From contig CM000150.2 of NCBI GenBank assembly GCA_000004695.1, positions 32,001 through 96,000 on the forward strand: DNA of 64,000 nucleotides, read 5' to 3'. Shown piece after piece: positions 12,128 to 64,000 of this stretch (position 1 is the stretch's first letter; the number at the start of each line of letters is the position of its first letter). The stretch is from Dictyostelium discoideum (taxonomy: Eukaryota). The position numbers were made by a program, and so were the translations under genes. The notes beneath the pieces were generated by a model that was given only the letters and a program-made list of their open reading frames with translations, had not been told where the DNA came from and made no database searches.

Positions 12128-12764
12128 CACAGCAAAGAAAAATGCACCTTTAAAGCAAATTTAAAGCAAAGTTGATTTAAATTTGATTTAAATTGAATTT
12201 AAAGCCGCATTTAAAAAATTCATTTTTAAGGTAATTTTTAAGGTTATTTTTAAGATATTTAAAAATGCTTTTAAAATTTGCTTTAAAATAAATTTTTAAG
12301 CAATTTTAAAGGTGATTTTAAAGGTGATTTTAAAGGTGATTTTTAAGGTAATTTTTAAGATAATTTTTAAGATATTTAAAAATACCTTTAAAATTTATTT
12401 TAAATTAATTTTAAATTGAATTTAAGTAGATTTAAAGTAGATTTATAGTGAATTTAAATTTCCTTTAAATATAAATTTAAGGTTTTTAATAAAAAAGATC
12501 TAATTTTAGATCAAAATGGGGATAAAATATTCTATCAATTTTAAATTTTCATCAAAGCAATCAAATGGTGAAATGGTTGATGAGACTACCCTTTGATAAA
12601 GGGTCGGGGGGTAGAATCCCTTTTGGTAATTTTTGAAAAATTTAAAAAAAAAATTAAATAATTTTATCCGTTAAATAACGGCTTCGAACTCAGGACCTCG
12701 CTTTTAAAGCGATTAAAAAGGTTATTTTAAAGGTAATTTTTAAGGTGATTTTAAAGTAAACTTT
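12128..12764 (+). mobile_element. CACAG-terminus nonautonomous (MITE-like) element, copy i, 3'-truncated; contains GGTGATTTTAAA-type tandem repeats and a tRNA-like module (about 12545-12720)
   Basis: Starts CACAGCAAAGAAAAATGCACCTTTAAAGCAAATTTAAAG, the same as the termini of the complete copy at 55858-56605. Confidence 0.55.
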
Positions 12765-12812
12765 TAAATTTTTCAAGTAGCTTTAAACTTATTGAGTTTT
12801 CAATTCCCAACA
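12765..12812 (-). mobile_element. 48-bp fragment of the family-B transposase gene (reverse orientation)
   Basis: Reverse complement matches 37500-37547 (..FLMLGIENSISLKLLEKF..). Confidence 0.45.
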
Positions 12813-19579: not shown

Positions 19580-19974
19580 TGCAGCAAAGAAAAATCCACA
19601 TTTAAAGCAAATTTAAAGCAAAGTTGATTTAAATTGGATTTAAATTGAATTTAAAGCCGGGTTTAAAAAATTCATTTTCAAGGTAATTTTTAAGATAATT
19701 TTAAGATATTTAAAAATGCTTTAAAATTTATTTTAAAATAATTTTAAAGAGGATTTAAAGTTGATTTAAAGTAGATTTAAAGTGAATTAAAATTTCCTTT
19801 AAATATAAATTTAAGGTTTTTAATAAAAAACATCTAATTTTAGATCAAAAAAATGGGGATAAAATATTCTATCATTTTTAAATTATCATCAAAGCAATCA
19901 AATGGTGAAATGGTTGATGAGACTACCCTTTGATTGATGAGACTACCCTTTTGGTAAATTTTCAAAAAATTTAA
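19580..19974 (+). mobile_element. MITE-like element, copy ii (5' ~400 bp), truncated by DIRS copy D5
   Basis: ..CAGCAAAGAAAAATCCACATTTAAAGCAAATTTAAAGCAAAGTTGATTTAAATT... is collinear with 12128-12560 and with the reverse complement of 56180-56605. Confidence 0.5.
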
Positions 19975-22900
19975 AAATTTAATTTATTAAATTATATTTT
20001 ATATTAAATATATATATATATATATTATGAATAACATTTATTTATTTGAATTTCCCAAATATTTAAGATAATTTTTTAGAATGTTCTAGAACATTCGAAG
20101 AATAAAAAATTTTCGAAAGAAAAGTAAAAATTTCGAACCGGCACAATGACGCGATCATTGCGACAGGTCGAAAAACTGAAAAATTCCGAACCGACACTAT
20201 GCACAAAGTTGTGAAGGGTCGAAAATACTTATTTTTTTTGAGTTTTGCGAAATTTTTAAGAAAAGAAAAACTTATAAATAGGGCACTAAAAACTAAAACA
20301 ATTTGATTTATGGAATTCCGACTAAGGGCGGGTGGGATGGGACTAATATATATATATATTTAATATAAAATATAATTTAATAAATTAAATTTTTAATTTA
20401 TATTATCATATATATATATATATATTATGAAATTTGGACGACAGTATTTAAGAAACCACCAGATTTTTCACCAATGATTCTCTTATCGTAGAAGGTATCT
20501 ACAGTATCGTTTGATTTCCAACGACCCATCTTCTTGACAACGTGGAACGGAACGTTATTGGACAACAGCAGAGAAGCCATAGCGGAACGGGTAGAGTGAG
20601 ATTTGAACTTGGAAATATCAATACCTGACTTTGAGAGTGTTGATAGTACAATTGAGTTAATATCATTAACTTGGAGTGATTCACCTTCATTCTTAATAAA
20701 GACAGAGTCACCCGAATGGGGCTTTCTTCTTCCTTTAGAGGCTCTAAGGTATGTTGCAAGGTGGCGAACAGGGCATACTTGAGAGTTAGTATCATCTAAA
20801 GATGTTAATTCTAAGATTGAAACAACACCACTTCTTTGTTCTTTAGCATTAATAACTGGACCTTTAATTGAGTCAGGAGTAATAATGAGACCTTTGAACG
20901 ACCACTTCACCAAGTCTGATGATCTTGCTAAACCAAACATTTTACAGAGTACAAGTGTCTTGTTTAATAGCGCAGTGTATGTGTACTTAGGGATAACTTT
21001 GATAGTAGATAAGTGCTTGAATACTTGATTTGCATCCCATATCTCTTTATACTTTGCTGATGAAGGACGCAACTTGTGAATACCAGTCATAATTCTTGTA
21101 ATGAATGGATCATTAACAATATCAGTTTGATTCCTAAGGAGTAATAACTGATTCAACATAGATCGATGACCGTTAATTGTTGAGAAGGCTAACGGAGGTT
21201 TGTGCTTGAACAGATGTGTAAGATAATCCATGAAAACAACTAAGGTAATGTTTGCTGGATTCAAAGAGTTCAAAGTACAGAAATTGCGGAATCTTGTATA
21301 ACTGGAGCTATATACTTTGAGAGTTGAAGGTTCCCAAGACTTCATTAACAGCTCAGCTGTTTTTGTATTTGTTGTACGAGCGAAGGACATTACATGAGAT
21401 TGGAAAGTTGAATAATCCCCAGTTTCCAACGTTGTTGAATCTGGATTGGTATCGACTCTACTGATTGTTTGGTCAATACTTCTTGGAATGTTCCCAGTAC
21501 TTGAGGAAACATGTGACGATGATGACGAGGAACTTGTGCTTGAATCATCGGATACCAAGTTGCTGATCTCCAGATTGGGAAGATCAGTATTATAGAAACC
21601 TTCTTCGAACTGGATGAGTTCATCTTCTCCAGGATAGAAGGCAAAAGAATGGGTGGTGGGAAGGCCAGACATTGCTTCTATTGACTCCAATCGAGGTGGA
21701 GTGCATTCATTCTGATTGTTGAGTAGTTGTTCGTTTGATGGTTGAGGTGAGATGCGAACAGATCCATCTGTATTTGACCGAATTGAAGTTGGATGCGATT
21801 GAACACTTCTTTCTTCAGTTGCCAGTTGTGACTCTTGATTACTCTGGTCGATGATTTGTGATTCATCTCTGAAAGACGACTGAGGTGGTCGGCTTTTACA
21901 TTGAAGAATCCTGGAATATGCTCTCCAATTAAGTTCACTTTCTTCTTGAGGCATTGTTTCCAAAGTTGTTCGAACAGAACTGAGAGATCTTGTATCTGAC
22001 CACCCTGGCGATTGATATAAGAGAGAGTGGTAGTGTTGTCGGTTTGAATCTTCAGCTTGCAGTTGTTCAGTTTCTGACATAGCGCTTGATAGGCCATTAG
22101 CAGTGCGAGCATTTCTCGACGATTTGACGACATGTTTGATTGAGTTGTTGACCACTGGAATGACCAAGTTTTGATTACCTTGTTTCCTTTCTTGAGAGTG
22201 GCACCTGCACCTGATTCCGAGGCATCGGTTGTAAGAACATAGTCGTAACTTGGAAACAGACTGATTTCTTTTCCATTCCATTGGTTTAGAACTGTTAACC
22301 AATGTGAAATCTCTGACTTGACATCTTGAGGAATGGGGAATGATTGATCCCAATCTCCATTGGCTAGAGTCAGACACTGAGAGTGAAACTTGTTTGTTCG
22401 ACGAGTGTAAAGTCTGAATGGGATGACTGCATCTTTCAGTGCGATTAGCTTTCCTTTTAAACCAGCAAGCTTTCTTGGGGAGCAAAAATCTAGTATTAAA
22501 AAGTTTCTTATTTCCTTGATGACACTTTTCTTCTTTTCTTTGGGAACAAGAAGCTTCATTGATACCGAATCGATTTGTAATCCGAGAAACGTAATTGATT
22601 GAGTTGGTTCGAGAACACTCTTTTCTAAGTTTAACTTGAAACCTAGTTTGACAAGTAAGTCCATTGTCTTTTTGAGGTTGGATAAACATTCTTCTTTTGT
22701 TGAACCGACGATTAATAGATCGTCCAAGTAAGCGATGACGGATACGTTGATATCTCTCAACATTCGAAGTACAGGTCTTAACAACATTGTAAAGATACGA
22801 GGAGCTGTCGATAACCCGAACGGCATTGTTTTCCAACGGTAGTGCGAACCTTTCCACACGAAGCGGAATAAGTCTCTGTATTGCGGATCTACTAATACGT

Positions 22901-35760: not shown

Positions 35761-35829
35761 ATTAAGTACACTTTATAATAGTACTATTTACATTCCTACT
35801 TTAAAGATGCTTTTAAGTATTTTTTTTCG

Positions 35830-36400
35830 CCCCTGTGCAACACAACAAACAAATAACAACACAACAAACAAATAACACAATAACAACACAACAAACACAA
35901 TAACAACACAACAAACACAATAACAACACAATAACAAAACAACTTCAAAATAAATTACAACACAATAACAACACAATAACAACACTGTAGCCGAACACAA
36001 CAGGTACGACAACAACAATAATTACAACATAATAACAACACAACAACAGGTAGGACTGCAACATCAATAAAACAGCAACATCAATAGTACAACAACAGCA
36101 ATAATAAAGCAACAATAATAATACAACATCAATAATACAGCAACAGCAATAGAAATTACATAGCAATATCAATAATACAACAACCACAGAGTTATTTCAC
36201 ATTCTTTTTTTTTTTTACTTGGAAGTTTTTTAACATTCATATTATAGCTATTTCCAATGAAAATTATCAAAGTGTTTATAGCTTACATGGTAATGCGATA
36301 AATTAATAAGGTAGAGGTCAAGGGTTCGATTCCCATATAAAACATTTCCACGGAACTTCAGGAAGGGAGGTCACGGTTCAATTCCCACATAAAACATAAA
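35830..36400. repeat. Right inverted arm of family-A copy 2 (AC-rich array plus tRNA-half-like units)
   Basis: Reverse complement of about 30513-31140. Confidence 0.6.
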
Positions 36401-36913
36401 TATATATATTAATAAGTATACTTAAAAAGTAATACTTTATAAGTACACTTAATAAGTATACTTAATAAGTGTACTTATTAAGTAGTACCACAGCAAAGAA
36501 AAATGAAAAAAAAAAAAAAAATTTAATTATTTGTTTTGCATATTTATATTATAAGTATAAACATACATATAAAAAAAGATTTTTTATTTTTTATTTTTTA
36601 TAATTAATAAACAATTAACGAGTGCACAGGTATATTATTGCATTAGTGTAGTTTTACAATTAATTGGGCAGATTTTATAGTTTTTTTTTAATATTTTAAA
36701 AAGAAAAAGGTATAGACAGGGTCATAGGTTCCCCGTCATTTTTTGAAAATGGGGTATATCCCTCTAAATATAAAATTCTAAGTACTAAATCATATATCTA
36801 CTTGCTATAATGCTAAAATTTGAATAAAATGAAAAAAAAAAAAAAAAAAAACGTAAAAACTCGAGGAAAAAAAAAAAAAAAAAATTATTTTTAATTTCCA
36901 GCCAGCAAACAAA

Positions 36914-39420
36914 ATGAATTTAAATAACATATCATGCATTAATTGCAGAGAAAAATTAAAGAATTTTTAAAATATTATTATTCATTATATTATGCATAAA
37001 AATATATGTCCATTTTGTCTTGCATATTACCGTTCTTATAAACAATTTTATGATGTAAATGGACATTTCAACACCAAAAAATGTAAAAATGAACAAAATA
37101 AAATTATTACAAATAATCAAAAAAGAGATAGCTTTTATAAAAAATTAATGGATATTACTGGTGAAAAAATAAAATATCCAACAAATGATCCAGATGACCC
37201 ATGTAAACATTTATGTAACCAAAACCAAGATGAAATTTTTTATCAAGAAAATAATGAAAATAATGAAAATAATCAAACAATTGATAATGAAGAAAATCAT
37301 GATATAATTGGGTTGGTACATAGTGAAGATGAAAACAATGAAATTAGAATAGATGAAAATGAAGCAAACATTAATAATGAAAATAATGAAAATAATGAAA
37401 ATGAAAATGCTCAAAACGAACCAATAAATAATAATCTAAATAATAATTTAGATAATGAAAAATCAAAAAAAAAATTAAATGAAACTGAAATTGAATTTTT
37501 AATGTTGGGAATTGAAAACTCAATAAGTTTAAAGCTACTTGAAAAATTTAAAAGTTTTATTGACAAAAATAAAACCAATTTAAATCAAATAAGATACACA
37601 CCTCAATATATGGATAAATTATTTATTGAAGATTTTCAAATAAAAGGAGAAACATTTATAAATAAAAATTATGATCACTCAATTTTTTATTTTGAAATTA
37701 AAAAAGTATTAGAAACTTTATTAAATAAAAAGCAATTTTTTGAAAGAATAGATTTTGATACAGATTTTGAAACTGGAATTTATACAAATTATAAAAGTGG
37801 TCAACAATTTAAAGATTTAAAAAATAAAAATAAAAATAAAATTGTTTTACTTAGAATTTTCACTGATAGTATGCAGTGTCAAAACAAGAAAGATTATACT
37901 ATAATGCTGGATATAGAAAATTATATTGGAAATGAATTTAAAAATAATAAATTATTATTATTTGTAGTACCAAATGATTGGTTACTTAATTTTCATCAAA
38001 CAATTAGGGCATTGTTTTCATCTTTTATTGGTAATGGCTTTAATTTAATTATTGAAAATGAACAAATAGATGTTGTACCGTTTGGACTAACAATGGATAT
38101 TCCAGAATTTAGAGCATCGTGTAAACTTAATGGACATAATTCAAATGAATATGCATGTCACACATGTGAAAAACCAAGAGATGGTTTATTTATTTGCAAA
38201 TCAGGTACATTAAGAAAACAAGAAGATATTACAAATTTTCACTCCAACAAACCAAATTATGCTGAATTAAATGCTGATATAGAATTAAAAAAAGTATGGG
38301 AAAAAAAAGCAAAAGATATTGGTATCAAAGGTGTGGACAGAGGGTGGGTCGAACCCTTGTCTATTAATTATTTAAAAACACAACCAGACATATTACATAA
38401 TATTTTATTAGGTGTCGCGCAAAGATGTTTAAATTACATTTTTGATAAATATAAAAATAAAATTGCAAATTTTTTAAATAATTTAAAAAATGCAAAAATA
38501 ATAGATAACAAACCAAAACCTTCAATTTCACTATTTGCAAATAAAACAAGGAAAGGAAGAGAGAATAGATCAATATTATATTACCTTTTAATATCAATTA
38601 AAAATCAAATATCAAATGATGATTTTTTAATTATGGAACAATTAGTAACTATATGTTTTAAATTATATAGTGACTCTTTTGATGAAAATGATTTAAATTC
38701 ACTTCAAGTATTAATTGAATCGTTTAATGCAAAAGTAAATTTAATTACTGAAACAGAAATAATGAATTTCCACTTGTTGTTACATTATCCAATCTATATA
38801 AAAAATTGGGGAGCACCAAAATACACTTCAGCTGAAACTTTTGAAGCACAATTATCAAGAATTAAAAATTATTTAAAAAATAATACAAATAATAGGGATG
38901 AACAATATGAAAGGGTTACCAAATTAAACATGGTGAAATTTTTTAATTCAGTAGATAAATTAAAAAGTATTGAACCTGAAAGTACAGCATTAATTATTGG
39001 TTACAAAATAAAAAATCCAGATAATTTAGATAACATAAAAATTAAATTAGATTCATTATTTCAAAACTATAAAAATATAACTTTTCACTCATCAATTAAA
39101 AATAATTAAGAAATATACAATGTTGGTGATGCAGTTGAAGTTGCATCAGATAATGAACTTTCAGGTAGATGGTCAGGTATTATCAATTCAATATCAATGA
39201 TTGAAATGGATGATAACATAATAAAACATGCAATATTATTAAATTATTTTGACAAATATGTTGGTGACCAATTTAATAAATACCAATAATTAAATTATAT
39301 TACATATGATAATATTCTAAATAATGTTATACCAATTCAAATTGATGATACCAATTACCTTATTATTTACAAATGCCACGATAAATTCTCGGCTTCAAAA
39401 AATAAAAAATCAAAAAATTA
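36914..39420 (+). pseudogene. Family-B transposase (about 830 codons), disrupted: +1 T near 36965 (MNLNNISCINCREKLKNF*), in-frame TAA at 39107, further stops in the C-terminal domain
   Basis: 705-aa ORF-track piece 36992-39109 is homologous to the family-A transposase (same motif order). The undamaged N-terminus is seen at 12031-12127. Confidence 0.65.
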
Positions 39421-39539
39421 AAAACTTTTTTACATAATTTTTACATTGTTATGTAAATAATGATTTTTTTTTTTTAATTTTTTTTCATTTTCGGGCAGAC
39501 TGAAAAAGCGAATATGATTTCAATACATATTTTTTTAAA

Positions 39540-39920
39540 ATGAATTCATCTGCAAATTTTATAGCACCAAATGGTAATGTACCTGATTTTAACCAATCAC
39601 CAATCCAAAGAAGAACAAACAATAATATTTCTATCGGAGATGAATCATTTAATAATTTGTCAATAGGTAATGTATTAGGAAATGCAAATGCTCCAAACCC
39701 AATGGAAAACCAGAGAATAATTAGAAGAGTTCCAAGGCCAACTGTTCCACCAATCCAAGAAACAGTGCAAATAGCCACAAACCCACGTGTAACATACATA
39801 TTGGAATACGAAAGTCTTCAGAAAGTTTGTCAAAGTAAATACTATTCAGATGGCGATGTATGTTACCATTTGGTAATGAAATTGTGTGTATAAATTTATA
39901 TAATCAAAATTTACAAAATA

Positions 39921-39968
<48 letters not shown>

Positions 39969-40243
39969 AAATATAGTTTTCCCCTGCTTTACTTTCTCTT
40001 TTTCTCAGCCACATTAATTATGAAAATTATCAAAATGATATTTTCATAAAAGAGTTTGTTGACTCTTGTAAAACAGGTGAAGAGAAACACTGGTACCCAG
40101 ATTCAGTTCCTTTAATAAAGAGATTAATTTCAATATTAAATGATTTTAGTAGTAAATTTGACTCTAAGGCTAAAATGAGAAAAGATGCACAAGAAGCTTT
40201 TCAATTTCCTCATTCTGCACTTTACTTAAATTCTTCCCAATAA
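39540..40243 (+). CDS. Family-B second gene lacking the middle exon: exon about 39540-39857, intron with poly(T), exon ~40009-40243
   Basis: ..TYILEYESLQKVCQSKYYSDGD | ..EEKHWYPDSVPLIKRLISILNDFSSKF.. is homologous to family-A exons 1 and 3. Confidence 0.45.
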
Positions 40244-40489
40244 AAGTTTTAAAATAATTTTTAAAATTTAAAAATAAATTTTATTATTAAAAAATAATAT
40301 ATCTGTGTATTTTATTGTTCACATAAAATTTTATTTCATACTATAGTTTTAAAATAATTTTTAAATTTTTTTTTTTATTTTTGTGGCATTATTAATAAGG
40401 TGCTTTTAAATGTAATTATTAATAATCTTTAAAATTCAATTTTTAAGGAGCTTTAAAATGTAATTATTAATATAATTTTTAATCATATT

Positions 40490-40690
40490 TTTAAGTAATT
40501 TTAAAGAGCATTATAAAGTTAATTTTAAAGGGCATTTTAAACTTAATTTTAAAGAGCATTATAAAGGTAATTTTAAAGGTCATTTTAAAGGTAATTTTCA
40601 AGGTCATTTTAAAGTTAATTTTAAAGGTGATTTTAAAGGTAATTTTAAAGGTGATTTTAAAGGTGATTTTAAAGGTGATTTTAAAGGTCA
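40490..40690. repeat. Tandem ~10-12-bp repeats (A)GGTGATTTTAAA and variants: subterminal repeats of family B, also present in the MITE-like elements (12290-12360, 56370-56420) and at 60630-60900
   Basis: Direct visual periodicity. Confidence 0.8.
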
Positions 40691-40976
40691 TTTAAATAAT
40701 TGCTTTTAAATTAATTTTTAAGTGACTTTTTTATAGGACTTTAAATCCACTTTTAATTTAATTTAAAGTTGCTTTAAAGGTGTAATTTTCATCGCTGTGA
40801 CTTATAAAGTATATTTATTAAGTATACTTATTAATTGTACTTATTAAGTATTATTTATTAAGTATACTTATTAATTGTACTTATTAAGTATTACTTATTA
40901 AGTATACTTATTAATATATATTAAAAAGAGTACTTGGATTTAAAGGTGCTTTAAAGTGTTGATTTTCGCCGCTGTG

Positions 40977-41926
40977 GTTGATCACAGTGCAGATACGTTT
41001 CGATTTTAAAATTCACATCTACCCTTGCACCTTTATTGTGTAGCAATTTGACCAGATCTACCTTATTTTTTTTCACTGCCCAATTCAACAACTTCTCACC
41101 GTTATCATTAATCGCAACATCTAAGTCTGGGAGTTTACTCTTGGAAGAAAGGTAAGTTGTTAGAAGAAGGTTTAACAAATCATTACTCGGCCATGCGAAG
41201 CCAAACCCAGAGAGGTTTTTTTTTCACTATCTCGTTAAGCATTTCTGTAATAACGTAATCGCTATTACCCTCACCACGCAGTTCGATTATCATGGCAATT
41301 TATTCTGGGTTAAGTTGTTTCTTTTGGCTTTTACTAAATGCTGATCTACCAAGAGATAATTGTAACTTGGCGCTACACGAATTTGAGCAGGTTGGTGGCG
41401 TACCGGTTTCCATTCTAGCTAAATAGTTCTTAGCGAGGATGCGTTTGAGCGCTCCACATAATGGACAGTAGAAGTCGAAGTATACACCGCCTTTCTCTTT
41501 CAAAAATCTGCGATAACGTTCACTCTTAATTCGATTCTCTTCTACTGTAAGAATCTGATATCGTCATTGGTCCTATCTTCATCCATGTGATCTACTTGTT
41601 CATTGGGCGATAATAATCTACCCAACTTCACCGACATTAAGTATTATGCGTAAGTCCGAAACGATCATGGCTGCTGTTGAAGCGTTTTCTTTTATCAGAA
41701 CACTCGATTAGATATCCGAGAAGCCATTGTTCTTTAAAACGGTAACTGCAACTCTAAACGCATTTTGACTCCTTAATGGTCTATCAAGGTAGTCATGTAG
41801 GACTAAGAATATCTGCCACCGAAACCAATCATTCTACCAACTGAACTACACGAGCAAATATGGAATGAGACCTAGGAGTCGAACCCAGGACCGCCGGATT
41901 TGAATCCTATGCTCAACCAAGTGAGC
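40977..41926 (-). other. Higher-GC island between the family-B terminus and a DIRS ITR: degenerate ORF with zinc-ribbon-like (41300-41503) and ankyrin-repeat (40977-41178) pieces in different frames, plus two tRNA-like sequences (about 41770-41845 and 41851-41925)
   Basis: ..YCPLCGALKRIL..CSNSCS..; ..DVAINDNGEKLLNWAVKKNKVDLVKLLHNKGARVDVN.. fits the ankyrin consensus; T-arm-like CTGGGTTCGACTCCTAG. Confidence 0.45.
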
Positions 41927-51300: not shown

Positions 51301-51990
51301 TTTCTTAAAAATTTCGCAAAACTCAAAAAAATAAGAGTTTTCGACCCTTCACAACTTTGTGCATAGTGTCGGTTCGGAATTTTTCAGTTTTTGTAAAAGT
51401 CACTCACACTAATCTTCAATCCATTGTCACATTTGTTCAATCTTAAATCAAACAGTCCAATCTTTAAAGTAATGTATTTTAATATGAAGGATAGAAAGAG
51501 TGAAAGACTAATATCATAAAAGTAAACATACATAAAAGAGATAATTAAAAGTAAGGGCGTTATGAAACTAAACCGAAAAATCAGAATTTTTATTATTTTT
51601 TTAAATTTTAATTTAATTTAATTTTTTTTAATTTAATTTTTTATTTTTTGACTGAAAAAATAAAAAATTAAAAAATAAAAATAAAAATTAAATGAAATAT
51701 TTTTACATGGAGATGCGCGAATTTGTTACGTTGTTGAGCTCATACTAACTTTAAATTAATTTAGTTTTGAGTCTCTAACAGTTTTTCGACCTTGCGCAAT
51801 TATCGCGTCATTGTGCCGGTTCGAAATTTTTACTTTTCTTTCGAAAATTTTTTATTCTTCGAATGTTCTAGAACATTCTAAAAAATTATCTTAAATATTT
51901 GGGAAATTCAAATAAATAAATGTTATTCATAATATATATATATATTTAATATAAAATATAATTTAATAAATTAAATTTTTAATTTTTTGA
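48341..51990 (+). mobile_element. DIRS-1 copy D10, 5'-truncated (starts within ORF3 codon ~14): ORF3 48367-50175 has a small internal rearrangement (~48700-48790); ORF2 48414-51140; right ITR interrupted by a 388-bp insertion (51393-51780)
   Basis: ORF-track 602-aa and 908-aa proteins match the RT/RH and recombinase sequences. Confidence 0.85.
51393..51780. other. 388-bp insertion of unknown identity inside the D10 right ITR, flanked by a 5-6-bp direct duplication (GTTTTT)
   Basis: ITR sequence ..ttcagttttt | insert | gtttttcgaccttgcgc..; the uninterrupted ITR reads ttcagtttttcgacc. No TIRs and no coding potential seen. Confidence 0.4.
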
Positions 51991-54900
51991 GTTTTGCGAA
52001 ATTTTTAAGAAAATAAAAACGTATAAATAGTGGCACAAAAAACTAAAACAATTTGATTTATGGAATTCCGACTAAGGGCGGGTGGGATGGGACTAATATA
52101 TATATATATATTTAATATAAAATATAATTTAATAAATTAAATTTTTAATTTATATTATCATATATATATATATTATGAAATTTGGACGACAGTATTTAAG
52201 AAACCACCAGATTTTTCACCAATGATTCTTTTATCGTAGAAAGTATCTACAGTATCATTTGATTTCCAACGACCCATCTTCTTAACAACGTGGAACGGAA
52301 CGTTATTGGACAACAGCAGAGAAGCCATAGCGGAACGGGTAGAGTGAGATTTGAACTTGACAATATCAATACCTGACTTTGAGAGTGTTGATAGTACAAT
52401 TGAGTTAATATCATTAACTTGGAGCGGTTCACCCTCATTCTTAATAAAGACAGAGTCACCCGAATGGGGCTTTCTTCTTCCTTTAGAGGCTCTAAGGTAT
52501 GTTGCAAGGTGGCGAACAGGGCATACTTGAGAGTTTGTATCATCTAACGATGTTAATTCTAAGATTGAAACAACACCACTTCTTTGTTCTTTAGCATTAA
52601 TAACTGGACCTTTGATTGAGTCAGTACTAATAATGAGACCTTTGAACGACCACTTCACCAAGTCTGATGATCTTGCTAAACCAAACATTTTACAGAGTAC
52701 AAGTGTCTTGTTTAATAGCGCAGTGTATGTGTACTTAGGGATAACTTTGATAGTAGATAAGTGCTTGAATACTTGATTTGCATCCCATATCTCTTTATAC
52801 TTTGCAGATGAAGGACGCAACTTGTGAATACCAGTCATAATTCTTGTGATGAATGGATCATTAACAATATCAGTTTGATTCCTGAGGAGTAACAACTGAT
52901 TCAACATAGAGCGATGACCGTTAATTGTTGAGAAGGCTAACGGAGGTTCGTGTTTGAATAGATGTGTAAGATAATCCATGAAAACAACTAAGGTAATGTT
53001 TGCTGGATTCAAAGAGTTCAAAGTACAGAAATTGCGGAATCTTGTATAACTGGAGCTATATACTTTGAGAGTTGAAGGTTCCCAAGACTTCATTAACAGC
53101 TCAGCTGTTTTTGTATTTGCTGTACGAGCGAAGGACATAACATGAGATTGGAAAGTTGAATAATCCCCAGTTTCCAACGTTGTTGAATCTGGATTGGTAT
53201 CGACTCTACTGATTGTTTGGTCAATACTTCTTGGAATGTTCCCAATACTTGAGGAAACATGTGACGATGATGACGAGGAACTTGTGCTTGAATCATCGGA
53301 TACCAAGTTGCTGATCTCCAGATTGGGAAGACCAGTATTATAGAAACCTTCTTCGAACTGGATGAGTTCATCTTCTCCAGGATAGAAGGCAAAAGAATGG
53401 GTGGTGGGAAGGCCAGACATTGCTTCCATTGACTCCAGTCGAGGTGGAGTGCATTCATTCTGATTGTTGAGTAGTTGTTCGTTTGATGGTTCAGGTGAGA
53501 TGCGAACAGATCCATCTGTATTTGACCGAATTGAAGTTGGATGCGATTGAACACTTCCTTCTTCAGTTGCCAGTTGTAACTCTTGATTACTCTGGTGGAT
53601 GATTTGTTATTCATCTCTGAAAGACGGCTGAGGTGGTCGGCTTTTACATTGAAGAATCCTGGAATATGCTCTCCAATCAAGTTCACTTTCTTCTTGAGGC
53701 ATTGTTTCTAAAGTTGTTCGAACAGAACTGAGAGATCTTGTATTTGACCACCCTGGCGATTGATGTAAGAGAGAGTGGTAGTGTTGTCGGTTTGAATCTT
53801 CAGCTTGCAGTTGTTCAGTTTCCGACATAGCGCTTGATAGGCCATAAGCAGCGCGAGCATTTCTCGACGATTTGACGACATGTTTGATTGATTTGTTGAC
53901 CACTGGAATGACCAAGTTTTGATTACCTTGTTTCCTTTCTTGAGAGTGGCACCTGCACCTGATTCCGAGGCATCGGTTGTAAGAACATAGTCGTAACTTG
54001 GAAACAGACTGATTTCTTTTCCGTTCCATTGGTTTAGAACTGTTAACCAATGCGAAATCTCTGACTTGACCTCTTGGGGAATGGGGAATGATTGATCCCA
54101 ATCTCCATTGGCTAGAGTCAGACATTGAGAGTGAAACTTGTTTGTTCGACGAGTGTAAAGTCTGAATGGGATGACTGCATCCTTCAGTGCGATTAACTTT
54201 CCTTTTAAACCAGCAAGCTTTCTTGGGGAGCAACAATCTAGTTTTAAAAAGTTTCTTATTTCTTTGATGACACTTTTCTTCTTTTCTTTGGGAACAAGAA
54301 GCTTCATTGATACCGAATCGATTTGTAATCCGAGAAAAGTAATTGATTGAGTTGGTTCGAGAACACTCTTTTTTAAGTTTAACTTGAAGCCTAGTTTGAC
54401 AAGTAAGTCCATTGTCTTTTTGAGGTTGGATAAACATTCTTCTTTTGTTGAACCGACGATTAATAGATCGTCCAAGTAAGCGATGACGGATACGTTGATA
54501 TCTCTCAACATTCGAAGTACAGGTCTTAACAGCATTGTAAAGATACGAGGAGCTGTCGATAACCCGAACGGCATTGTTTTCCAACGGTAGTGCGAACCTT
54601 TCCACACGAAGCGGAATAAGTCTCTGTATTGTGGATCTACTAACACGTGGAGGTAGGCTTTCTTGATATCGAGTTTTACCATGTAATAACCTTGTTTGAC
54701 CATTGATGGTAGATTCTTGATTCCTTCCATCTTGAATGATTGGTTGTTGATGTAAGTGTTTAACCTTTTTAAATCTAGAACTGGACGATGTAGATTCGTT
54801 CCAGGTTTTGGAACCGTAAACACGTTGGAGTAAAAAACGCGCTTTGAATAACAGTTTGGAAGTACTTGTTCGATAGCATCGTCTAATAACAAGTCTTGTA

Positions 54901-57290
54901 CTTCCTTTGTGATGCAATCTGATTTCGGACCCTCTGGAATTGAAATCGGAATTGGGTTTAGCATCGGCTTGAAATTTGGAAGCAGATGGACTTTTAATCC
55001 ATTTACAACCTCTTGACAAAAGTTTAGAAGACCCAATTCTTTCCAAACTTGTTTGTGGTGGAACAGACGTCCACCTACTGGTAAGTTTACTTCTTGTTCT
55101 TCTGAAAACGGTTGTTGGTACCGTTGGCAGACTTTGTATTGTTGCTACCTGATGCAACAATACTTGGTGATCCATTGAAGTTGTTAGATCGGCCATTACT
55201 CCCACTACTGGATTTACCATTACTACTGTTTCCTGTAGTGTTATTACCACTTGAGTTAACTGATTTCTTGACATTGGACTTGGAATGATAATTCAATTTT
55301 AACAATGATTGTTTAGCTTCGTTGTTCTTTCTGATTGACTTGGCTAGCTTTCTTACACGTTCAGTTTCAGTTTCATCAAACATCTTTGGTGTATCCTTGA
55401 TCTTAATTCGTAAGAGTACTTCAGAACCATAAATTTCTTTAGCGATGTTGTTACGACGGACACGACTAAGCGATGCTTGAGCATTAACGGCTAAGACGAT
55501 TGCACTCTGAGTTAAATAACTAATAAGTTCTAAATCGACATTAGAGCTATCAGATGATAACATACTTGACATGAGAAGCAAAGGTTTTAAGCTATCGTTG
55601 ATTCGCTTTTCGACAATCAACAAGTCAGTATCATTGTTCTTGACGTTGGATGATACAGTAATACCTTCAGGTGTACCGAATGGAGCGACATTCACTTGGA
55701 AGTTAGATGGAAAGTTGAATACTTTATTCAATTCGGATATCTCATCTTTCTTGAGGATACATTCTTCTTCGACGAATAAACCTTGATTGTTAACCATATG
55801 TTTGTACTGACCAAGTAAAGTATCGGATAATTGATAATCGGTTGGAAAATCGACATTCACAGCAAAGAAAAAACCACCTTTAAATTCGCTTTAAATTAAA
55901 TTTAAATTTGCTTTAAAGTCCTGAATTAAAGCAATTTTAAAGGTAATTTTAAAGGTAATTTTTAAAGGTTACTTAAAATCACCTTAAAAAATTACATTAA
56001 AATTACCTTTTTAATGGCTTTAAAAGCGAGGTCCTGAGTTCGAATCCGTTATTTAACGGATAAATTTTTTAAAATTTTTTTTTTAATTTTTCAAAAATTA
56101 CCCAAAAGGGATTCGATCCCCCGACCCTCTATCAAAGGGTAGTCTCATCAACCATTACACCATTTGATTGCTTTGATGAAAAATTTAAAAATGATAGAAT
56201 ATTTTATCCCCATTTTTTTGTGCTAAAATTAGATCTTTTTTATTAAAAACCTTAAATTTATGTTTAAAGGAAATTTAAATTCACTTTAAATCTACTTTTA
56301 ATCTACTTTAAATCCTATTTAAAATTAATTTAAAATAAATTTTAAAGGTATTTTTAAATATCTTAAAAATTATCTTAAAAATTACCTTAAAAATCACCTT
56401 TAAAATCACCTTTAAAATCACCTTTAAAATTGCTTAAAAATTTATTTTAAAGCAAATTTTAAAGGCATTTTTAAATATCTTAAAAATTACCTTAAAAATT
56501 ACCTTAAAAATGAATTTTTTAAACGCGGCTTTAAATTCAATTTAAATCCAATTTAAATCAACTTTTCTTTAAATTTGCTTTAAAGGTGCATTTTTCTTTG
56601 CTGTGTTGTTACTTGATTCATCTTCACTTTGTTCATTCTCAGTGTCAGAGTCATCATGAGAAGGTTGGCTACGTGAATTGGTATTAGATGAGAACATAGG
56701 TTCTTTCATGAATCTAGTAAAGGCTAAGGAAAGGTTGTTGATTTGATCCTCCATTGACTTCATTCTTAAATCAAAGGATTCAGCACTATTAGAGGCAGAG
56801 GTATTGCTACTAGAGGCTTCATTATTATTAACAGTGGTAGACATATTTTATTGTTGATATCTAAAATTATAATATGAGAAAAATAATAATATTAAAAATT
56901 AATAAAGAGAAATAATTATTTGTATAAAATTTGTGTGTGTGTGTATCTTAAATATATATAGGAGGAATTCCCAAATAAAATAAATCGAATTGTTTTAGTT
57001 TTTAGTGCCACTATTTATACGTTTTTATTTTCTTAAAAATTTCGCAAAACTCAAAAAAATAAGAGTTTTCGACCCTTCACAACTTTGTGCATAGTGTCGG
57101 TTCGAAATTTTTCAGTTTTTCGACCTTACACAATGATCGCGTCATTGTGCCGGTTCGAAATTTTTACTTTTCTTTCGAAAATTTTTTATTCTTCGAATGT
57201 TCTAGAACATTCTAAAAAATTATCTTAAATATTTGGGAAATTCAAATAAATAAATGTTATTCATAATATATATATATATATGATAATATA
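51991..57290 (-). mobile_element. DIRS-1 copy D11, full-length-derived: recombinase C-terminus 52173-53429, frameshifted ORF3 pieces (53093-55036), ORF1 split by a MITE-like insertion, left ITR about 56870-57290
   Basis: ORF1 residues 79-335 at 55087-55857 and residues 1-78 at 56606-56844, separated by the 748-bp element. Confidence 0.85.
55858..56605 (-). mobile_element. Complete MITE-like nonautonomous element (748 bp) with ~15-bp TIR CACAGCAAAGAAAAA / TTTTTCTTTGCTGTG, internal GGTGATTTTAAA-type repeats and a tRNA-like module (about 56040-56180), inserted into DIRS ORF1 codon ~79
   Basis: Uninterrupted ORF1 reads ..atcgacattgttacttg.. (e.g. 17780-17800). Here atcgacatt + element + ttgttacttg, an apparent 2-bp (TT) duplication. 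Confidence 0.7.
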
Positions 57291-58640
57291 AAACAGCTGA
57301 GCTGTTAATGAAGTCATGGGAACCTTCCACTCTCAAAGTATATAGCTCCAGTTATACAAGATTCCGCAATTTCTGTACTTTGAACTCTTTGAATCCAGCA
57401 AACATTACCTTAGTTGTTTTCATGGATTATCTTACACATCTGTTCAAACACAAACCTCCGTTTGCCTTCTCAACAATTAACGGTCATCGCTCTATGTTGA
57501 ATCAGTTGTTACTCCTTAGGAATCAAACTGATATTGCTAATGATCCATTCATCACAAGAATTATGACTGGCATTCACAAGTTGCGTCCTTCATCTGCAAA
57601 GTATAAAGAGATATGGGATGCAAATCAAGTATTCAAGCACTTATCTACTATCAAAGTCATCCCCAAGTACACATACACTGCGCTATTAAACAAGACACTT
57701 GTACTCTGTAAAATGTTTGGTTTAGCAAGATCATCAGACTTGGTGAAGTGGTCGTTCAAAGGTCTCATTATTACTACTGACTCAATCAAAGGTCCAGTTA
57801 TTAATGCTAAAGAACAAAGAAGTGGTGTTGTTTCAATCTTAGAATTAACATCTTTAGATGATACAAACTCTCAAGTATGCCCTGTTCGCCACCTTGCAAC
57901 ATACCTTAGAGCCTCTAAAGGAAGAAGAAAGCCCCATTCGGGTGACTCTGTCTTTATTAAGAATGAGGGCTCCAAGTTAATGATATTAACTCAATTGTAT
58001 TATCAACACTCTCAAAGTCAGGTATTGATATTGTCAAGTTCAAATCTCACTCTACCCGTTCCGCTATGGCTTCTCTGCTGTTGTCAAATAACTTTCCGTT
58101 CCACGTTGTCAAGAAGTTGGTTCGTTGGAAATCAAACGATACTGTAGATACCTTCTACGATAAAAGAATCATTGGTGAAAAATCTGGTGGTTTCTTAAAT
58201 ACTGTCGTCCAAATTTCATAATATATATATATATATAATAATATAAATTAAAAATTTAATTTATTAAATTATATTTTATATTAAATATATATATATATAT
58301 TAGTCCCATCCCACTCTCCCTTAGTCGGAATTCCATAAATCAAATTGTTTTAGTTTTTAGTGCCACTATTTATACGTTTTTATTTTCTTAAAAATTTCGC
58401 AAAACTCAAAAAAATAAGTGTTTTCGACCCTTCACAACTTTGTGCATTGTGTCGGTTCGGAATTTTTATGTTTTTCGACCTTGCGCAATGATCGCGTCAT
58501 TGTGCCGGTTCGAAATTTTTACTTTTCTTTCGAAAATTTTTTTATTCTTCGAATGTTCTAGAACATTCTAAAAAATTATCTTAAATATTTGGGAAATTCA
58601 AATAAATAAATGTTATTCATAATATATATATATGATAATA
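57291..58640 (+). mobile_element. DIRS-1 fragment D12: recombinase C-terminal region (57308-58220) with an internal deletion/frameshift near 57970, plus right ITR (58221-58640)
   Basis: ORF 57308-58147 MKSWEPSTLKVYSSSYTRFRNF...; canonical ITR follows the stop. Confidence 0.8.
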
Positions 58641-58692: not shown

Positions 58693-60530
58693 AAAGAGAT
58701 AGCTTTTATAAAAAATTAATGGATATTACTGGTGAAAAAATAAAATATCCAACAAATGATCCAGATGACCCATGTAAACATTTATGTAACCAAAACCAGA
58801 TGAAATTTTTTATCAAGAAAATAATGAAAATAATGAAAATAATCAAACAATTGATAATGAAGAAAATCATGATACAATTGGGTTGGTACATAGTGAAGAT
58901 GAAAACAATGAAATTATAATGGATCAAAATGAAGCAAACATTAATAATGAAAATAATGAAAATAATGAAAATGAAAATTGTCAAAATGAACCAATAAATA
59001 ATAATCAAAATAATAATATAGATATTGAAAAATCAAAAAAAAAATTAAATGAAACTGAAATTGAATTTTTAATGTTGGGAATTGAAAACTCAATAAGTTT
59101 AAAGCTTCTTGAAAAATTTAAAAGTTTTATTGACAAAAATAAAACTAATTTAAATCAAATAAGATACACACCTCAATATATTGATAAATTATTTATGGAA
59201 GATTTTCAAATAAAAGGAGAAACATTTATAAATAAAAATTATGATCACTCAATTTTTTATTTTGAAATTAAAAAAGTATTAGAAACTTTATTAAATAAAA
59301 AGCAATTTTTTGAAAGAATAGATTTTGATACAGATTTTGAAACTGGAATTTATACAAATTATAAAAGTGGTCAACAATTTAAAGATTTAAAAAATAAAAA
59401 TAAAAATAAAATTGTTTTACTTAGAATATTCACTGATAGTATGCAGTGTCAAAACAAGAAAGATTATACTATAATGCTGGATACAGAAAATTATATTGGA
59501 AATTAATTTAAAAATAATAAATTATTATTATTTGTAGTACCAAATGATTGGTTACTTAATTTCCATCAAACAATTAGGGCATTGTTTTCATCTTTTATTG
59601 GTAATGGCTTTAATTTAATTATTGAAAATGAGCAAATAGATGTTGTACCGTTTGGACTGACAATGGATATTCCAGAATTTAGAGCATCGTGTAAACTTAA
59701 TGGACATAATCCAAATGAATATGCATGTCACACATGTGACAAACCAAGATATGGTTTATTTATTTGCAAATCAGGTACATTAAGAAAACAAGAAGATATT
59801 ACAAATTTTCACTCCACCAAACCAAATTATGCTGAACTAAATGCTGATATAGAATTAAAAAAAGTATGGGAAAAAAAAGCAAAAGATATTGGTATCAAAG
59901 GTGTGGACAGAGGGTGGGTCGAACCCTTGTCCATTAATTATTTAAAAACACAGCCGGACATTTTACATAATATTTTATAAGGTGTCGCACAAAGGTGTTT
60001 AAATTACATTTTTGATAAATATAAAAATAAAATTGCAAATTTTTTAAATAATTTAAAAAATGCAAAAATAATAGATAACAAACCAAAACCAGCAATTTCA
60101 CTATTTGCAAATAAAACAAGGAAAGGAAGAGATAATAGATCAATATTATATTACCTTTTGATGTCAATTAAAAATCAAATATCAAATGATGATTTTTTAA
60201 TTATGGAATAATTAGTAACTATATGTTTTAAATTATACAGTGACTCTTTTGATGAAAATGATTTAAATTCACTTCAAGAATTAATTGAAAGTAAATTTAA
60301 TTACTGAAACAGAAATAATGAATTTCCACTTGTAATTACATTATCCAATTTATATAAAAAATTTAGGTGCTCCAAAATACACTTCAGCTGAAACTTTTGA
60401 AGCACAATTATCAAGAATTAAAAATTATTTAAATAATAATACAAATAATAGGGATGAACAATATGAAAGGGTTTCCAAAGAAAACATGGTGAAATTTTTT
60501 AATTCAGTAGATAAATTAAAAACACAGCGA
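58693..60530 (+). mobile_element. Family-B copy 2: internal transposase-gene fragment (residues ~47-600), frameshifted, lacking both termini
   Basis: ORFs 58883-59506 and 59582-59980 match 37300-38400 at protein level with frame breaks. Confidence 0.6.
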
Positions 60531-60532
60531 TG

Positions 60533-61421
60533 AAAGTTACACCTTTAAAGCAACTTTAAATTAAATTAAAGTGGATTTAAAGTCCTATAAAAAAGTCACT
60601 TAAAAATTAATTTAAAAGCAATTTTTTAAATGACCTTTAAAATCACCTTTAAAATCACCTTTAAAATTACCTTTAAAATCACCTTTAAAATTAACTTTAA
60701 AATGACCTTGAAAATTACCTTTATAATGCTCTTTAAAATTAACTTTAAAATGCCCTTTAAAATTACCTTTATAATGCTCTTTAAAATTACCTTTAAAATG
60801 ACCTTTAAAATGACCTTTAAAATTACCTTTATAATTTTTTTTAAAATTAAGTTTAAAATGCCCTTTAAAATTAACTTTATAATGCTCTTTAAAATTACTT
60901 AAAAATATGATTAAAAACTATATTAATAATTACATTTTAAATCTCCTTAAAAATTGAATTTTAAAGTTTATTAATAATTACATTTAAAAGCACCTTATTA
61001 ATAATGCAAAAATAAATAAAAAAATTTTAAAAATTATTTTAAAACTATAGTATGAAATAAAATTTTATGTGAACAATAAAATACACAGATATATTATTTT
61101 TTAATAATAAAATTTATTTTTAAATTTTAAAAATTATTTAAAACTTTTATTGGGAAGAATTTAAGTAAAGTGCAGAATGAGGAAATTGAAATGCTTCTTG
61201 TGCATCTTTTCTCATTTTAGCCTTAGAGTCAAATTTACTACTAAAATCATTTAATATTGAAATTAATCTCTTTATTAAAGGAACTGAATCTGGGTACCAG
61301 TGTTTCTCTTCACCTGTTTAACAAGAGTCAACAAACTCTTTTATGAAAATATCATTTTGATAATTTTCATAATTAATGTGGCTGAGAAAAAGAGAAAGTA
61401 AAGCAGGGGAAAACTGTATTT

Positions 61422-61471
<50 letters not shown>

Positions 61472-61749
61472 TATTTTGTAAATTTTGATTATATTAATTT
61501 ATACACACAATTTCATTACCAAAAAATACTTGGCTATCGGAAATATAAACTTTAAGATTGTGGTTTTTTTCACCTTTTGAATAAATGGCTAAACTGTCAG
61601 CTACTTTTGTTCTTGTGTTACTATCCTTATTACTTACCCATTTCGTTAACCTTGCAAAAATATTTTGACTGGTACAATCTTCGTTACTACCACCAGCTTG
61701 TTTAATTATTCCAGTAATAAAGAAATTTGAAACCTATTTATTTAAATTA

Positions 61750-61786
<37 letters not shown>

Positions 61787-64000
61787 ATTAATCTGGTAAC
61801 ATACATCGCCATCTGAAAAGTATTTACTTTGACAAACTTTCTGAAGACTTTCGTATTCCAATATGTATTGAAATCATTTTCGCTTTTTCAGTCTGCCCGA
61901 AAATGAAAAAAAATTAAAAAAAATCATTTTTTACATAAAAATGTAAAAATTATGTAAAAAAGTTTTTAATTTTTTGATTTATTATTTTTTGAAGCCGAGA
62001 TTTTATCGTGGCATTTGTAAATTATAAGGTAATTGGTATCATCAATTTGAATTGGTAAAACATTATTTAGAATATTATCATATGTAATATAATTTAATTC
62101 ATTTGAAAGAAAATGGTATTTGTTAAATTGGTCACCAACATATTTGTCAAATAATTTAATAATATTGCATGTTTTATTATGTTATCATCCATTTCAATCA
62201 TTGATATTGAATTGATAATACCTGACCATCTACCTGAAAGTTCATTATCTGATGCAACTTCAACTGCATCACCAACATTGTATATTTCTTTATTATTTTT
62301 AATTGATGAGTGATTATTTATATTTTTATAATTTTGAAATAATGAATCTAATTTAATTTTTATGTTATCTAAATTATCTGGATTTTTTATTTTGTTACCA
62401 ATAATTAAAGCTGTACTTTCAATTTCAATACTTTTTAATTTATCTACTGATTTAAAAAATTTCACCATGTTTAATTTGGTAACCCTTTCATATTGTTCGT
62501 CCCTATTATTTGTATTATTATTTAAATAATTTTTAATTCTTGAGAATTGTGCTTCAAAAGTTTCAGCTGAAGTGTATTTTGGTGCACCCCAATTTTTTAT
62601 ATAAATTGGATAATGTAACAACAAGTGGAAATTCATTATTTCTGTTACTTTAAACATCTTTGCGCGACACCTAATAAAATATGTAAAATGTCTGGTTGTG
62701 TTTTTAAATAATTAATGGACAAGGGTTCGACCCACCCTCTGTCCACACCTTTGATACCAATATCTTTTGCTTTTTTTCCCATACTTTTTTTAATTCTATA
62801 TCAGCATTTAGTTCAGCATAATTTGGTTTGGTGGAGTGAAAATTTGTAATATCTTCTTGTTTTCTTAATGTACCTGATTTGCAAATAAATAAACCATATC
62901 TTGGTTTGTCACATGTGTGACATGCATATTCATTTGGATTATGTCCATTAAGTTTACACGATGCTCTAAATTCTGGAATATCCATTGTCAGTCCAAACGG
63001 TACAACATCTATTTGCTCATTTTCAATAATTAAATTAAAGCCATTACCAATAAAAGATGAAAACAATGCCCTAATTGTTTGATGGAAATTAAGTAACCAA
63101 TCATTTGGTACTACAAATAATAATAATTTATTATTTTTAAATTAATTTCCAATATAATTTTCTGTATCCAGCATTATAGTATAATCTTTCTTGTTTTGAC
63201 ACTGCATACTATCAGTGAATATTCTAAGTAAAACAATTTTATTTTTATTTTTATTTTTTAAATCTTTAAATTGTTGACCACTTTTATAATTTGTATAAAT
63301 TCCAGTTTCAAAATCTGTATCAAAATCTATTCTTTCAAAAAATTGCTTTTTATTTAATAAAGTTTCTAATACTTTTTTAATTTCAAAATAAAAAATTGAG
63401 TGATCATAATTTTTATTTATAAATGTTTCTCCTTTTATTTGAAAATCTTCCATAAATAATTTATCAATATATTGAGGTGTGTATCTTATTTGATTTAAAT
63501 TAGTTTTATTTTTGTCAATAAAACTTTTAAATTTTTCAAGAAGCTTTAAACTTATTGAGTTTTCAATTCCCAACATTAAAAATTCAATTTCAGTTCCATT
63601 TAATTTTTTTTTTGATTTTTCATTATCTAAATTATTATTAAGATTATTATTTATTGGTTCGTTTTGAGCATTTTCATTTTCATTATTTTCATTATTTTCA
63701 TTATTAATGTTTGCTTCATTTTCATCTATTCTAATTTCATTGTTTTCATCTTCACTATGTACCAACCCAATTATATCATGATTTTCTTCATTATCAATTG
63801 TTTGATTATTTTCATTATTTTCATTATTTTCTTGATAAAAAATTTCATCTTGGTTTTGGTTACATAAATGTTTACATGGGTCATCTGGATCATTTGTTGG
63901 ATATTTTATTTTTTCACCAGTAATATCCACTAATTTTTTATAAAAGCTATCTCTTTTTTGATTATTTGTAATAATTTTATTTTGTTCATTTTTACATTTT
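60533..64000 (-). mobile_element. Family-B copy 3 (inverted), running off the window end: inner terminus unit (60533-60600), GGTGATTTTAAA repeats (60630-60900), second-gene remnant (61147 to about 61905, exon 1 largely deleted but middle exon retained), frameshifted transposase (62094-63930)
   Basis: 60533 CACAGCGATGAAAGTTACACCTTTAAAGC is the reverse complement of 40779-40807. ORFs 62094-62657, 62704-63066 and 63142-63930 match the family-B transposase. Confidence 0.6.

Follow-up and report, generated by a model that had tools for sequence, protein, structure and literature searches.

The DNA analysed here, referred to as the window, is a stretch of 64,000 nucleotides of Dictyostelium discoideum AX4 chromosome 1 (contig CM000150.2, positions 32,001 to 96,000; G+C content 31%), and positions given below are those of the window unless a locus label precedes them. 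Its open reading frames (ORFs) match exactly the AX4 chromosome 1 proteins DDB_G0267228, DDB_G0267238 and DDB_G0267250, and self-comparison revealed approximately 10 copies of DIRS-1, so that the window represents the DIRS-1 cluster at the chromosome end. One of these DIRS-1 copies (51973..57292, minus strand) is interrupted by a 748-bp sequence at 55858-56605, which splits its ORF1 at about codon 79, as calculated from the coordinates. Analysis of this sequence indicated that it is most probably a copy of a short, non-coding DNA transposon of the DDT family which carries a tRNA-gene-like core between its arms.

The boundaries of the 748-bp element were determined by comparison with uninterrupted DIRS-1 copies, which are real empty sites. 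The host copy aligns to four other DIRS-1 copies up to position 55857 and the alignment resumes at 56606, with an overlap of the flanks of 2 nt in three comparisons and of 3 nt in one. The empty site reads GACATTGTTAC and the filled site reads GACATT-[748 bp]-TTGTTAC; the dinucleotide TT, single in the uninterrupted copies, is found both at 55856..55857 and at 56606..56607, and the boundaries and the 2-bp target site duplication (TSD) suggested for this site by the initial annotation are therefore established. The sequence CACAGCAAAGAAAAA is located at 55858..55872 on the plus strand and at 56591..56605 on the minus strand with zero mismatches, and hence the element is bounded by perfect 15-bp terminal inverted repeats (TIRs), as had been described. 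Further occurrences of this 15-mer lie at 12128, at 36489 and, with 2 mismatches, at 19580, giving a total of 6 in the window versus 0.58 expected.

Both TIRs are followed by subterminal blocks of 11-12-bp repeats. The left block (55873..56025) consists of degenerate AATTTTAAAGGT / CTTTAAATT units, which are presumed transposase-binding sites, and the right block (56263..56590) includes three tandem TTTAAAATCACC units, one of them with a single mismatch. The 12-bp unit TTTAAAATCACC occurs 30 times in the window versus 1.9 times expected, and all 30 matches are confined to copies of the short element or to the ends of its large relative, in agreement with the claim that the repeats of the large family recur inside the short element. 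The longest ORF of the element encodes 37 amino acids (aa) and lies within repeat sequence, and the element is thus non-coding; with its size below about 800 bp, the lack of coding capacity, the TIRs and the TSD it resembles a miniature inverted-repeat transposable element in these respects.

Comparison DNA from other assemblies comprised approximately 150 kb rich in transposable elements, around seven genes homologous to the 705-aa ORF of the large relative, and a further 22 kb around an 816-aa gene. Eight such loci (L001-L007 etc.) were fetched, and including the window approximately 240 kb of transposon-rich D. discoideum DNA from several assemblies were compared. This sample contains 13 copies of the short element, ten of them in the other assemblies, and the sequence with these termini is a multi-copy family. 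The two further copies reported in the window are both truncated and lie on the minus strand. The second copy (12128..12771) is 94% identical over element positions 100-748, lacks the left end and has a mutated B box in the tRNA-like unit designated below as module 1; it is inserted within the first few codons of a 705-aa-type ORF, at the equivalent of position 37012 (ORF start 36992), so that the interruption of a transposase start described by the initial annotation is real. The third copy (19582..19993) is about 85% identical over element positions 206-746 and has lost the T-arm portion of module 1.

Copies in the other assemblies include five full-length ones (L002:21345-22097; L003:4029-4760, 6581-7341, 16856-17613 and 19010-19766), a partial copy (L004:6036-6596) and a 325-bp deletion derivative (L003:5012-5336) which has kept both arms, intact ends and a TA TSD and has lost the tRNA-like core. 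The copies form two subfamilies that are approximately 80% identical to each other; subfamily 2 is represented by a full-length copy (L004:18783-19511) and by a copy in L007 which is split by a nested DDT-type element. The dinucleotide TSDs of the short copies are TT, CC, GT, TA, TA, TA and AA, with one imperfect pair TC/TA, while those of an autonomous copy (L002:9218-14251) and of the nested 2.1-kb relative are TG and TA, respectively. A 2-bp TSD of no fixed sequence was found in nine of the ten DDT-type elements in which both ends are present. The nested element in L007 (15996-18076) is a 2.1-kb, non-coding DDT-type element of 15% G+C with the TIR CACAGCGAAGAAAATC; it is another non-autonomous DDT lineage, and its insertion into the 5' end of module 1 has disrupted the A box.

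The autonomous copy at L002:9218-14251 is 5,034 bp in length and has CACAGCAATGAAAA termini, as in the short element. Its left and right ends match the right and left ends of the short element, respectively, and the ends of the short element also match those of large elements at window positions 40799 and 60523. This end-for-end match identifies the short element as a classical non-autonomous derivative of that lineage, and bears out the earlier proposal of a small derivative of a large TIR element. In the window, the large relative (designated family B in the initial annotation) is located at 36489..40799 on the plus strand, carries a 705-aa transposase ORF at 36992-39109 and has no left subterminal repeats; it is nested in a second DDT element, within the right arm. 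Another copy at 60523..64000 (minus strand) has the terminus and the 12-bp subterminal repeats in common with it. Homologues of the 705-aa ORF were found only in D. discoideum and D. cf. discoideum, and the protein of the autonomous lineage ranges from 705 to 814 aa. Full-length comparison of the 705-aa protein with the 715/816-aa family encoded by the second large element of the window gave 47% identity; judged by their predicted proteins, two related autonomous lineages are present, as expected for DDT-A and DDT-B.

Searches of the DDT proteins against Pfam and against the sequences of the PDB gave no matches. A profile search of 1.8 billion representatives revealed approximately 50 remote relatives of the DDT transposase, and among the 12 relatives that were aligned the Pfam domains Transposase_21 (tnp2), DUF1258 and DUF4218 were identified in four, three and one, respectively. 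Comparison of the DDT proteins with these relatives using hhalign gave a probability of 99.8% (E 6.8e-29, 456 columns), the relatives having been chosen among the hits of the DDT profile. The DDT residues D292, D369 and E618 align with the invariant D, D and E of the relatives, and CxxC and HxxxH motifs align too. The termini read CACAGC...GCTGTG in nearly all copies, with TGCAGC in the degenerate third copy, and 5'-CAC...GTG-3' ends are a hallmark of the CACTA/Mirage/Chapaev (CMC) superfamily (PMC4079192). Since the CAC...GTG termini, the short TSD, the subterminal repeat arrays and the profile homology to Transposase_21/DUF1258-like DDE transposases agree in this respect, the DDT transposases fit as remote members of the CMC superfamily, with D292, D369 and E618 as candidate DDE residues. 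The DDT elements differ from it in that their termini are CACAG and not CACTA, and their proteins pass no Pfam model. TSDs in the superfamily are short (2-4 bp), and a 2-bp TSD is known for Mirage. According to a review citing earlier work, DDT transposases have no significant similarity to known transposases (PMC5633606).

The core between the arms of the short element contains two tRNA-gene-like modules. Module 1, a degenerate tRNA-like unit of 71 nt, is located at 56099..56169 on the minus strand, 242-312 nt inside the 748-bp unit, and has an anticodon arm (ACCCT/TTGATAG/AGGGT) with a 5-bp stem and a 7-nt loop. Promoter boxes were assigned using TRGYNNANNGG for the A box and, for the B box, the D. 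discoideum internal type GTCnnnnGTTCRAnYC (16 positions, 12 of them specified; PMC3159450). The A box TGGTGTAATGG (56152..56162, minus strand), which occupies positions +8 to +18 of module 1, matches its consensus perfectly in both subfamilies. The B-box-like site GTCGGGGGATCGAATC (56110..56125, minus strand) has the GTC signature and a single mismatch, T to A. The distance from the start of the A box to the start of the B box is 44 nt, and the A-to-B box spacing in D. discoideum tRNA genes is 32-57 bp (PMC5391098). An A/T-rich spacer (56060..56098) with T runs on both strands adjoins module 1 and includes, 2 nt downstream of it, a T5 run (56093-56097, minus strand) resembling a terminator of RNA polymerase III (Pol III).

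Module 1 was evaluated with Infernal and the Rfam tRNA model (gathering score 29 bits) and with ARAGORN under standard and relaxed settings (ps85 and ps80). Infernal aligned module 1 to the tRNA model from end to end with 13.6 bits, and the score was 14.8 bits for a copy carrying the exact subfamily-1 consensus sequence in this module. ARAGORN called the same 71 nt with the same boundaries only at ps85 and ps80, and at ps80 it gave approximately 33 calls per 64 kb of shuffled sequence; with standard settings no tRNA gene was found in the window. The cloverleaf is not the minimum-energy fold of module 1 in subfamily 1. The tRNA-like segment reported by the initial annotation is thus present, but it is weak and folds no better than shuffled sequence, and the lack of an acceptor stem is roughly right, although 6 of the 7 positions pair in this copy (one G-U) and 5 of 7 in the family consensus (one G-U; read by eye). 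BLAST of module 1 against phage records gave merely chance-level matches of 24-37 nt.

Module 2, which had been missed, is a B box, GTCCTGAGTTCGAATC, at 56031..56046 on the plus strand; it lies on the opposite strand approximately 50 nt downstream of module 1, so that the two modules are convergent. In this copy it matches GTCnnnnGTTCRAnYC exactly at all 12 specified positions, while the family consensus GTTCGAAGC has one mismatch at the Y position; in the family alignment, GTTCRANNC is matched in eight of the nine copies retaining the site. No credible A box was found upstream of module 2 (4 of 7 positions). Since TTCGAA is palindromic, module 2 also resembles an external B box placed approximately 50 nt downstream of module 1, but on the strand of module 1 it fits only with an extra base. 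In Dictyostelium, 66% of the tRNA genes have an external B box located about 41 bp downstream (PMC3159450), an arrangement exemplified by a real tRNA-Gly gene in L001. Matches to the extended B-box pattern number 12 in the window versus 2.1 expected, and are mostly in DDT-type DNA. Module 2 is followed by a short hairpin, CCGTTATTTAACGG (56046..56059, plus strand), which is conserved in subfamily-1 copies and has an altered stem in subfamily 2. Hits to miRNA-like Rfam families over 1 kb were attributed to chance matches of A/T repeats, and hairpins resembling mir-581 and MIR9481 to an artefact of two near-palindromic B boxes facing each other.

Conservation of the core was determined with the 746-bp consensus of subfamily 1, compared between the two subfamilies. 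The whole core (element positions ~249-429) is 88-95% identical between subfamilies, as is the unique core upstream of module 1 (56170..56262), whose consensus includes the near-palindrome GATCTAAAATTAGATC; the two B boxes persist even though the subfamilies are only about 80% identical overall. The core was sought in the autonomous copies and in the second DDT family and is lacking in both, where only low-complexity T runs were matched, and in the window and the eight loci it never occurs outside the arms of the short element.

Near-consensus B boxes were observed elsewhere in DDT DNA. The sequence GACAAGGGTTCGACCC, with one mismatch, lies at 38346-38361, 59916-59931 and 62718-62733, inside the transposase ORF on the opposite strand; it is kept in all three copies of the 705-aa lineage, has no good A box upstream and may be a coding coincidence.

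The second large DDT-family element (30256-40976) has CACAGCGGCGAAAATC termini and encodes an 816-aa protein (ORF 31591-34041). Both of its arms carry TAATAAGTA subterminal repeats, then T-arm-like/B-box repeats and then an outward-facing tRNA-like unit, a layout that resembles a Dictyostelium tRNA gene with external B boxes. The arm modules (~30520-30700, minus strand; 36273-36385, plus strand; L001:8662-9100) have a good A box and a G at +1 and lie approximately 370-440 nt from the ends; in L001 the tRNA-like unit starts about 437 nt from the terminus by manual count. A diverged version, approximately 74% identical, is found at L004:13120-13502 and 15617-15998. The arm modules gave no match to the Rfam tRNA model at E<=10, and thus rank below module 1. 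Local alignment of module 1 with an arm module was significant (z of approximately 4.6), but reflects the generic T arm only. Alignment of 7885-12129 with 31883-37012 showed that the equivalent of position 35837 is joined directly to the equivalent of 36706 in one copy, while the other contains 868 extra bp (an arm duplicate, TAATAAGTA repeats and the terminus at 36489); this junction is chimeric or rearranged between two DDT lineages, for which simple nesting is insufficient.

DDT is one of three families of DNA transposons of D. discoideum (PMC5633606), and DDT-A and DDT-S are listed among its putative DNA transposons (PMC4559204). For DDT-B, with a consensus of 5,471 bp, integration of the retrotransposon TRE5-A 46 bp upstream of an A/B-box motif has been reported, the DDT-B fragment concerned comprising nt 428-1 plus 3291-1646 (PMC9012585, Barth et al. 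2022). As its arm layout fits this description, the element at 30256-40976 is probably DDT-B, and given that identity the 705-aa lineage is probably DDT-A. The 748-bp element is almost certainly DDT-S, with which it shares the host species, a short non-coding sequence, ends in common with a large DDT element and residence in transposon clusters. The family, including its short member DDT-S, reportedly goes back to Glockner et al. 2001. The size of DDT-S, which we take to be about 0.75 kb and use as a lead only, agrees with 748 bp. No DDT-S data were found in the supplement of PMC4559204.

Taken together, we consider that the 748-bp sequence is a copy of a short, non-coding DDT-family DNA transposon with a passenger tRNA-gene-like core, which perhaps is still a site for TFIIIC, with a probability of about 0.8. 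The 700-800-aa DDE transposase of the ~5.0-kb autonomous DDT element would presumably move the short element in trans, and cut-and-paste transposition leaves a 2-bp duplication of any sequence; the present copy has interrupted a DIRS-1 ORF1 within the centromeric cluster of these elements. The core of approximately 250-280 bp, absent from the autonomous elements, comprises a decayed tRNA-gene-like unit with an A box, a near-consensus B box and T5; a further tRNA-type B box is found on the opposite strand, about 50 nt downstream. The core most likely represents captured or inherited tRNA-gene DNA, now a passenger, which may still bind TFIIIC.

Several results weigh against this interpretation. 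The score of module 1 is at half the Rfam threshold, which leaves tRNA ancestry unproven; the subfamily-2 module gives no hit on the Rfam tRNA model, and the fold of the module is no more stable than those of shuffled sequences (z 0.02 to -0.27). All intact copies of the two subfamilies share one T-to-A mismatch in the B box of module 1. Conservation of the module does not exceed that of the neighbouring unique core, and hence there is no sign of selection on the tRNA-like part specifically. The name DDT-S rests on the host, the size, the non-coding sequence and the DDT-type ends, and the hhalign test of the transposase class is not fully independent, given how the relatives were chosen, while the Pfam labels are independent.

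We asked whether the core may do more than travel as a passenger. It could bind TFIIIC, and perhaps TFIIIB and Pol III, give rise to a short transcript of module 1 and act as a decoy tRNA gene, serving as a landing site for TRE5-A-type retrotransposons or as a chromatin boundary, which would add to the preferred explanation and not replace it. This is conceivable but doubtful. The perfect A box, the one-mismatch B box at 44 nt and the T5 run 2 nt downstream of module 1 argue for it, as do the exact B box of module 2 in this copy, its GTTCRANNC motif in eight of nine copies and the persistence of both boxes across the subfamilies. Moreover, the arms of the DDT-B-like element, presumed to be the published target, score still lower on the tRNA model; if they are taken as that target, a low tRNA score does not exclude use by TRE5-A. 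On the other hand, no retroelement was found in the 13 copies at the canonical distance upstream of module 1 or module 2 (for TRE5-A, about 47 bp), which is a weak negative given the small sample and its origin from transposon clusters, and the sole insertion in the core is the DDT-type element with the TA TSD in L007. The +1 position of module 1 is A, while G is found at 83% of tRNA genes and at all A/B-box loci of the ribosomal DNA (rDNA) (PMC5391098), and module 2 has no credible A box. The boxes are not conserved beyond the neighbouring core, and since the 325-bp derivative has intact ends and a TA TSD, the core is dispensable for insertion. Truncation of the second copy at ~12795, about 45-60 bp upstream of module 2, was considered as a TRE5-A insertion and rejected, the neighbour being a G+C-rich piece with a phage-like P-loop ORF.

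The likeness to tRNA may also be due to chance, a G+C-richer patch in an A+T-rich element happening to resemble A and B boxes, although we judge this unlikely. It is consistent with scores of 13.6-14.8 bits versus 29, of which our own scaling of the E-values predicts about 0.06-0.25 per 64 kb for the tRNA family alone, with relaxed ARAGORN calls that are equally common in shuffled sequences, with fold z values of about 0, with the lack of a tRNA hit in subfamily 2 and with the occurrence of B-box-like motifs every ~7.5 kb of the genome (PMC5391098). However, Infernal and ARAGORN arrive independently at identical boundaries of the 71-nt unit, and this unit combines correctly spaced A and B boxes, the latter with the tRNA-internal GTC signature, with a terminator. 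In addition, a B box matching at 12 of 12 positions lies only about 50 nt away, and most of the 12 extended B boxes of the window (2.1 expected) are in DDT-type elements.

The initial annotation regarded the module as unusual cargo resembling a short interspersed nuclear element (SINE). The minus strand does have a tRNA-like head followed by an A-rich stretch (56098 down to ~56060), as expected if a tRNA-derived SINE or a retroposed tRNA pseudogene had inserted into a short deletion derivative. Against this, the core is never found without transposon arms in the ~240 kb compared, it is not surrounded by a TSD, its score is well under tRNA thresholds and A-rich runs are found everywhere in the genome; furthermore, both subfamilies carry the core at an equal position, which makes it older than their split. 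A SINE insertion is accordingly very improbable. That the module belongs to a real flanking tRNA gene and the boundaries of the element are misdrawn can be dismissed with near certainty, as no supporting point was found, the module lies at an identical internal position at ~10 loci and is internal in every copy, within a unit bounded by TIRs and TSD inside a DIRS-1 ORF with known uninterrupted copies, and standard ARAGORN detects no tRNA gene in the window. A thug-type element was likewise rejected: thug-S and thug-T are also D. discoideum DNA transposons, but thug-S is described with an intron and miRNA-like RNAs (PMC4894637), thug is a family separate from DDT (PMC5633606), and these descriptions set it apart. 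The comparison with thug-type elements was therefore off target, the proper comparator being DDT-S (PMC4559204).

Three G+C-rich patches (12800-13650, 18480-19580 and 40980-41860; approximately 38-47% G+C versus 31% for the window) adjoin DDT ends. One of them encodes a P-loop ORF matching phrog_2586 (E 1e-7). Apart from a tRNA fragment, blastn of the patches against phage and Escherichia coli collections gave no match, and none of the eight loci contains them; a foreign origin, an unrecognised repeat and an assembly problem are all conceivable. Two tRNA fragments adjoin the third patch at 41800-41930 on the minus strand; one has an encoded CCA end, is 85% identical over 57 nt to tRNA-Lys of Stenotrophomonas phages and includes a perfect B box (41876-41891), and the other is a tRNA 5' half, GCTCGTGTAGTTCAGTTGGTAGAAT. 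The patch adjoining the third copy of the short element contains GTCGATGGTTCGAGTC (19127-19142, minus strand), which agrees perfectly with the internal B-box consensus.

The element at 55858-56605 is an ordinary copy of a catalogued and already known transposon family, and its tRNA-promoter-like core is a modestly new detail; no description of a tRNA-like core in DDT-S was found in the literature searched. The statement that a tRNA module in a TIR element is unusual is not supported, since an A/B box has been published for DDT-B (PMC9012585) and the second DDT element of the window has modules in both arms. Like the short element, DDT-B has a tRNA-promoter-like A and B box in a DDT transposon without a full tRNA context. 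It differs in that its sequence is unlike that of the module of the short element except for the generic T arm, in that its boxes are in the long terminal arms and not in a central core, and in that use by TRE5-A has been shown for DDT-B only. The A/B-box loci of the rDNA palindrome and the 'extra TFIIIC' sites of yeast also have B boxes, with or without an A box, outside tRNA genes and share the B-box consensus (PMC3159450, PMC5391098), but experimental TRE5-A integrations, transcripts and a +1 G are documented for the rDNA loci and, so far, not for the DDT-S modules. Regarding the traits of TRE5-A targets, the B box of module 2 is exact here, and its family consensus and the B box of module 1 have one mismatch each. 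A and B boxes resembling an internal Pol III promoter also occur in tRNA-derived SINEs, which are repeated elements too, but DDT-S is transposed as DNA and has TIRs and a 2-bp TSD, and its tRNA-like part is internal and not 5' and has no independent copies.

For annotation, a tRNA-like hit of this kind is part of a repeat and is not to be reported as a tRNA pseudogene locus. The 2-bp TSD of any sequence, the CAC...GTG termini and the profile homology to CMC transposases together place the DDT elements in a superfamily. Boxes resembling tRNA promoters are now found in two DDT lineages, in the core of the short element and in the arms of the probable DDT-B. The relation of the DDT-B A/B box to the replication of DDT-B was left open by Barth et al. 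2022 (PMC9012585), and the short element provides a compact second test case for this question. It is rather improbable, in our view, that mimicry of tRNA genes is a built-in, selected trait of DDT elements, the arms of DDT-B and the core of DDT-S keeping their A and B boxes to recruit TFIIIC. If it were, these decoy tRNA genes might steer TRE5-A, TRE3 and DGLT-A into transposon DNA, or might provide a chromatin boundary or Pol III transcripts that aid the persistence of the elements in a gene-dense haploid genome.

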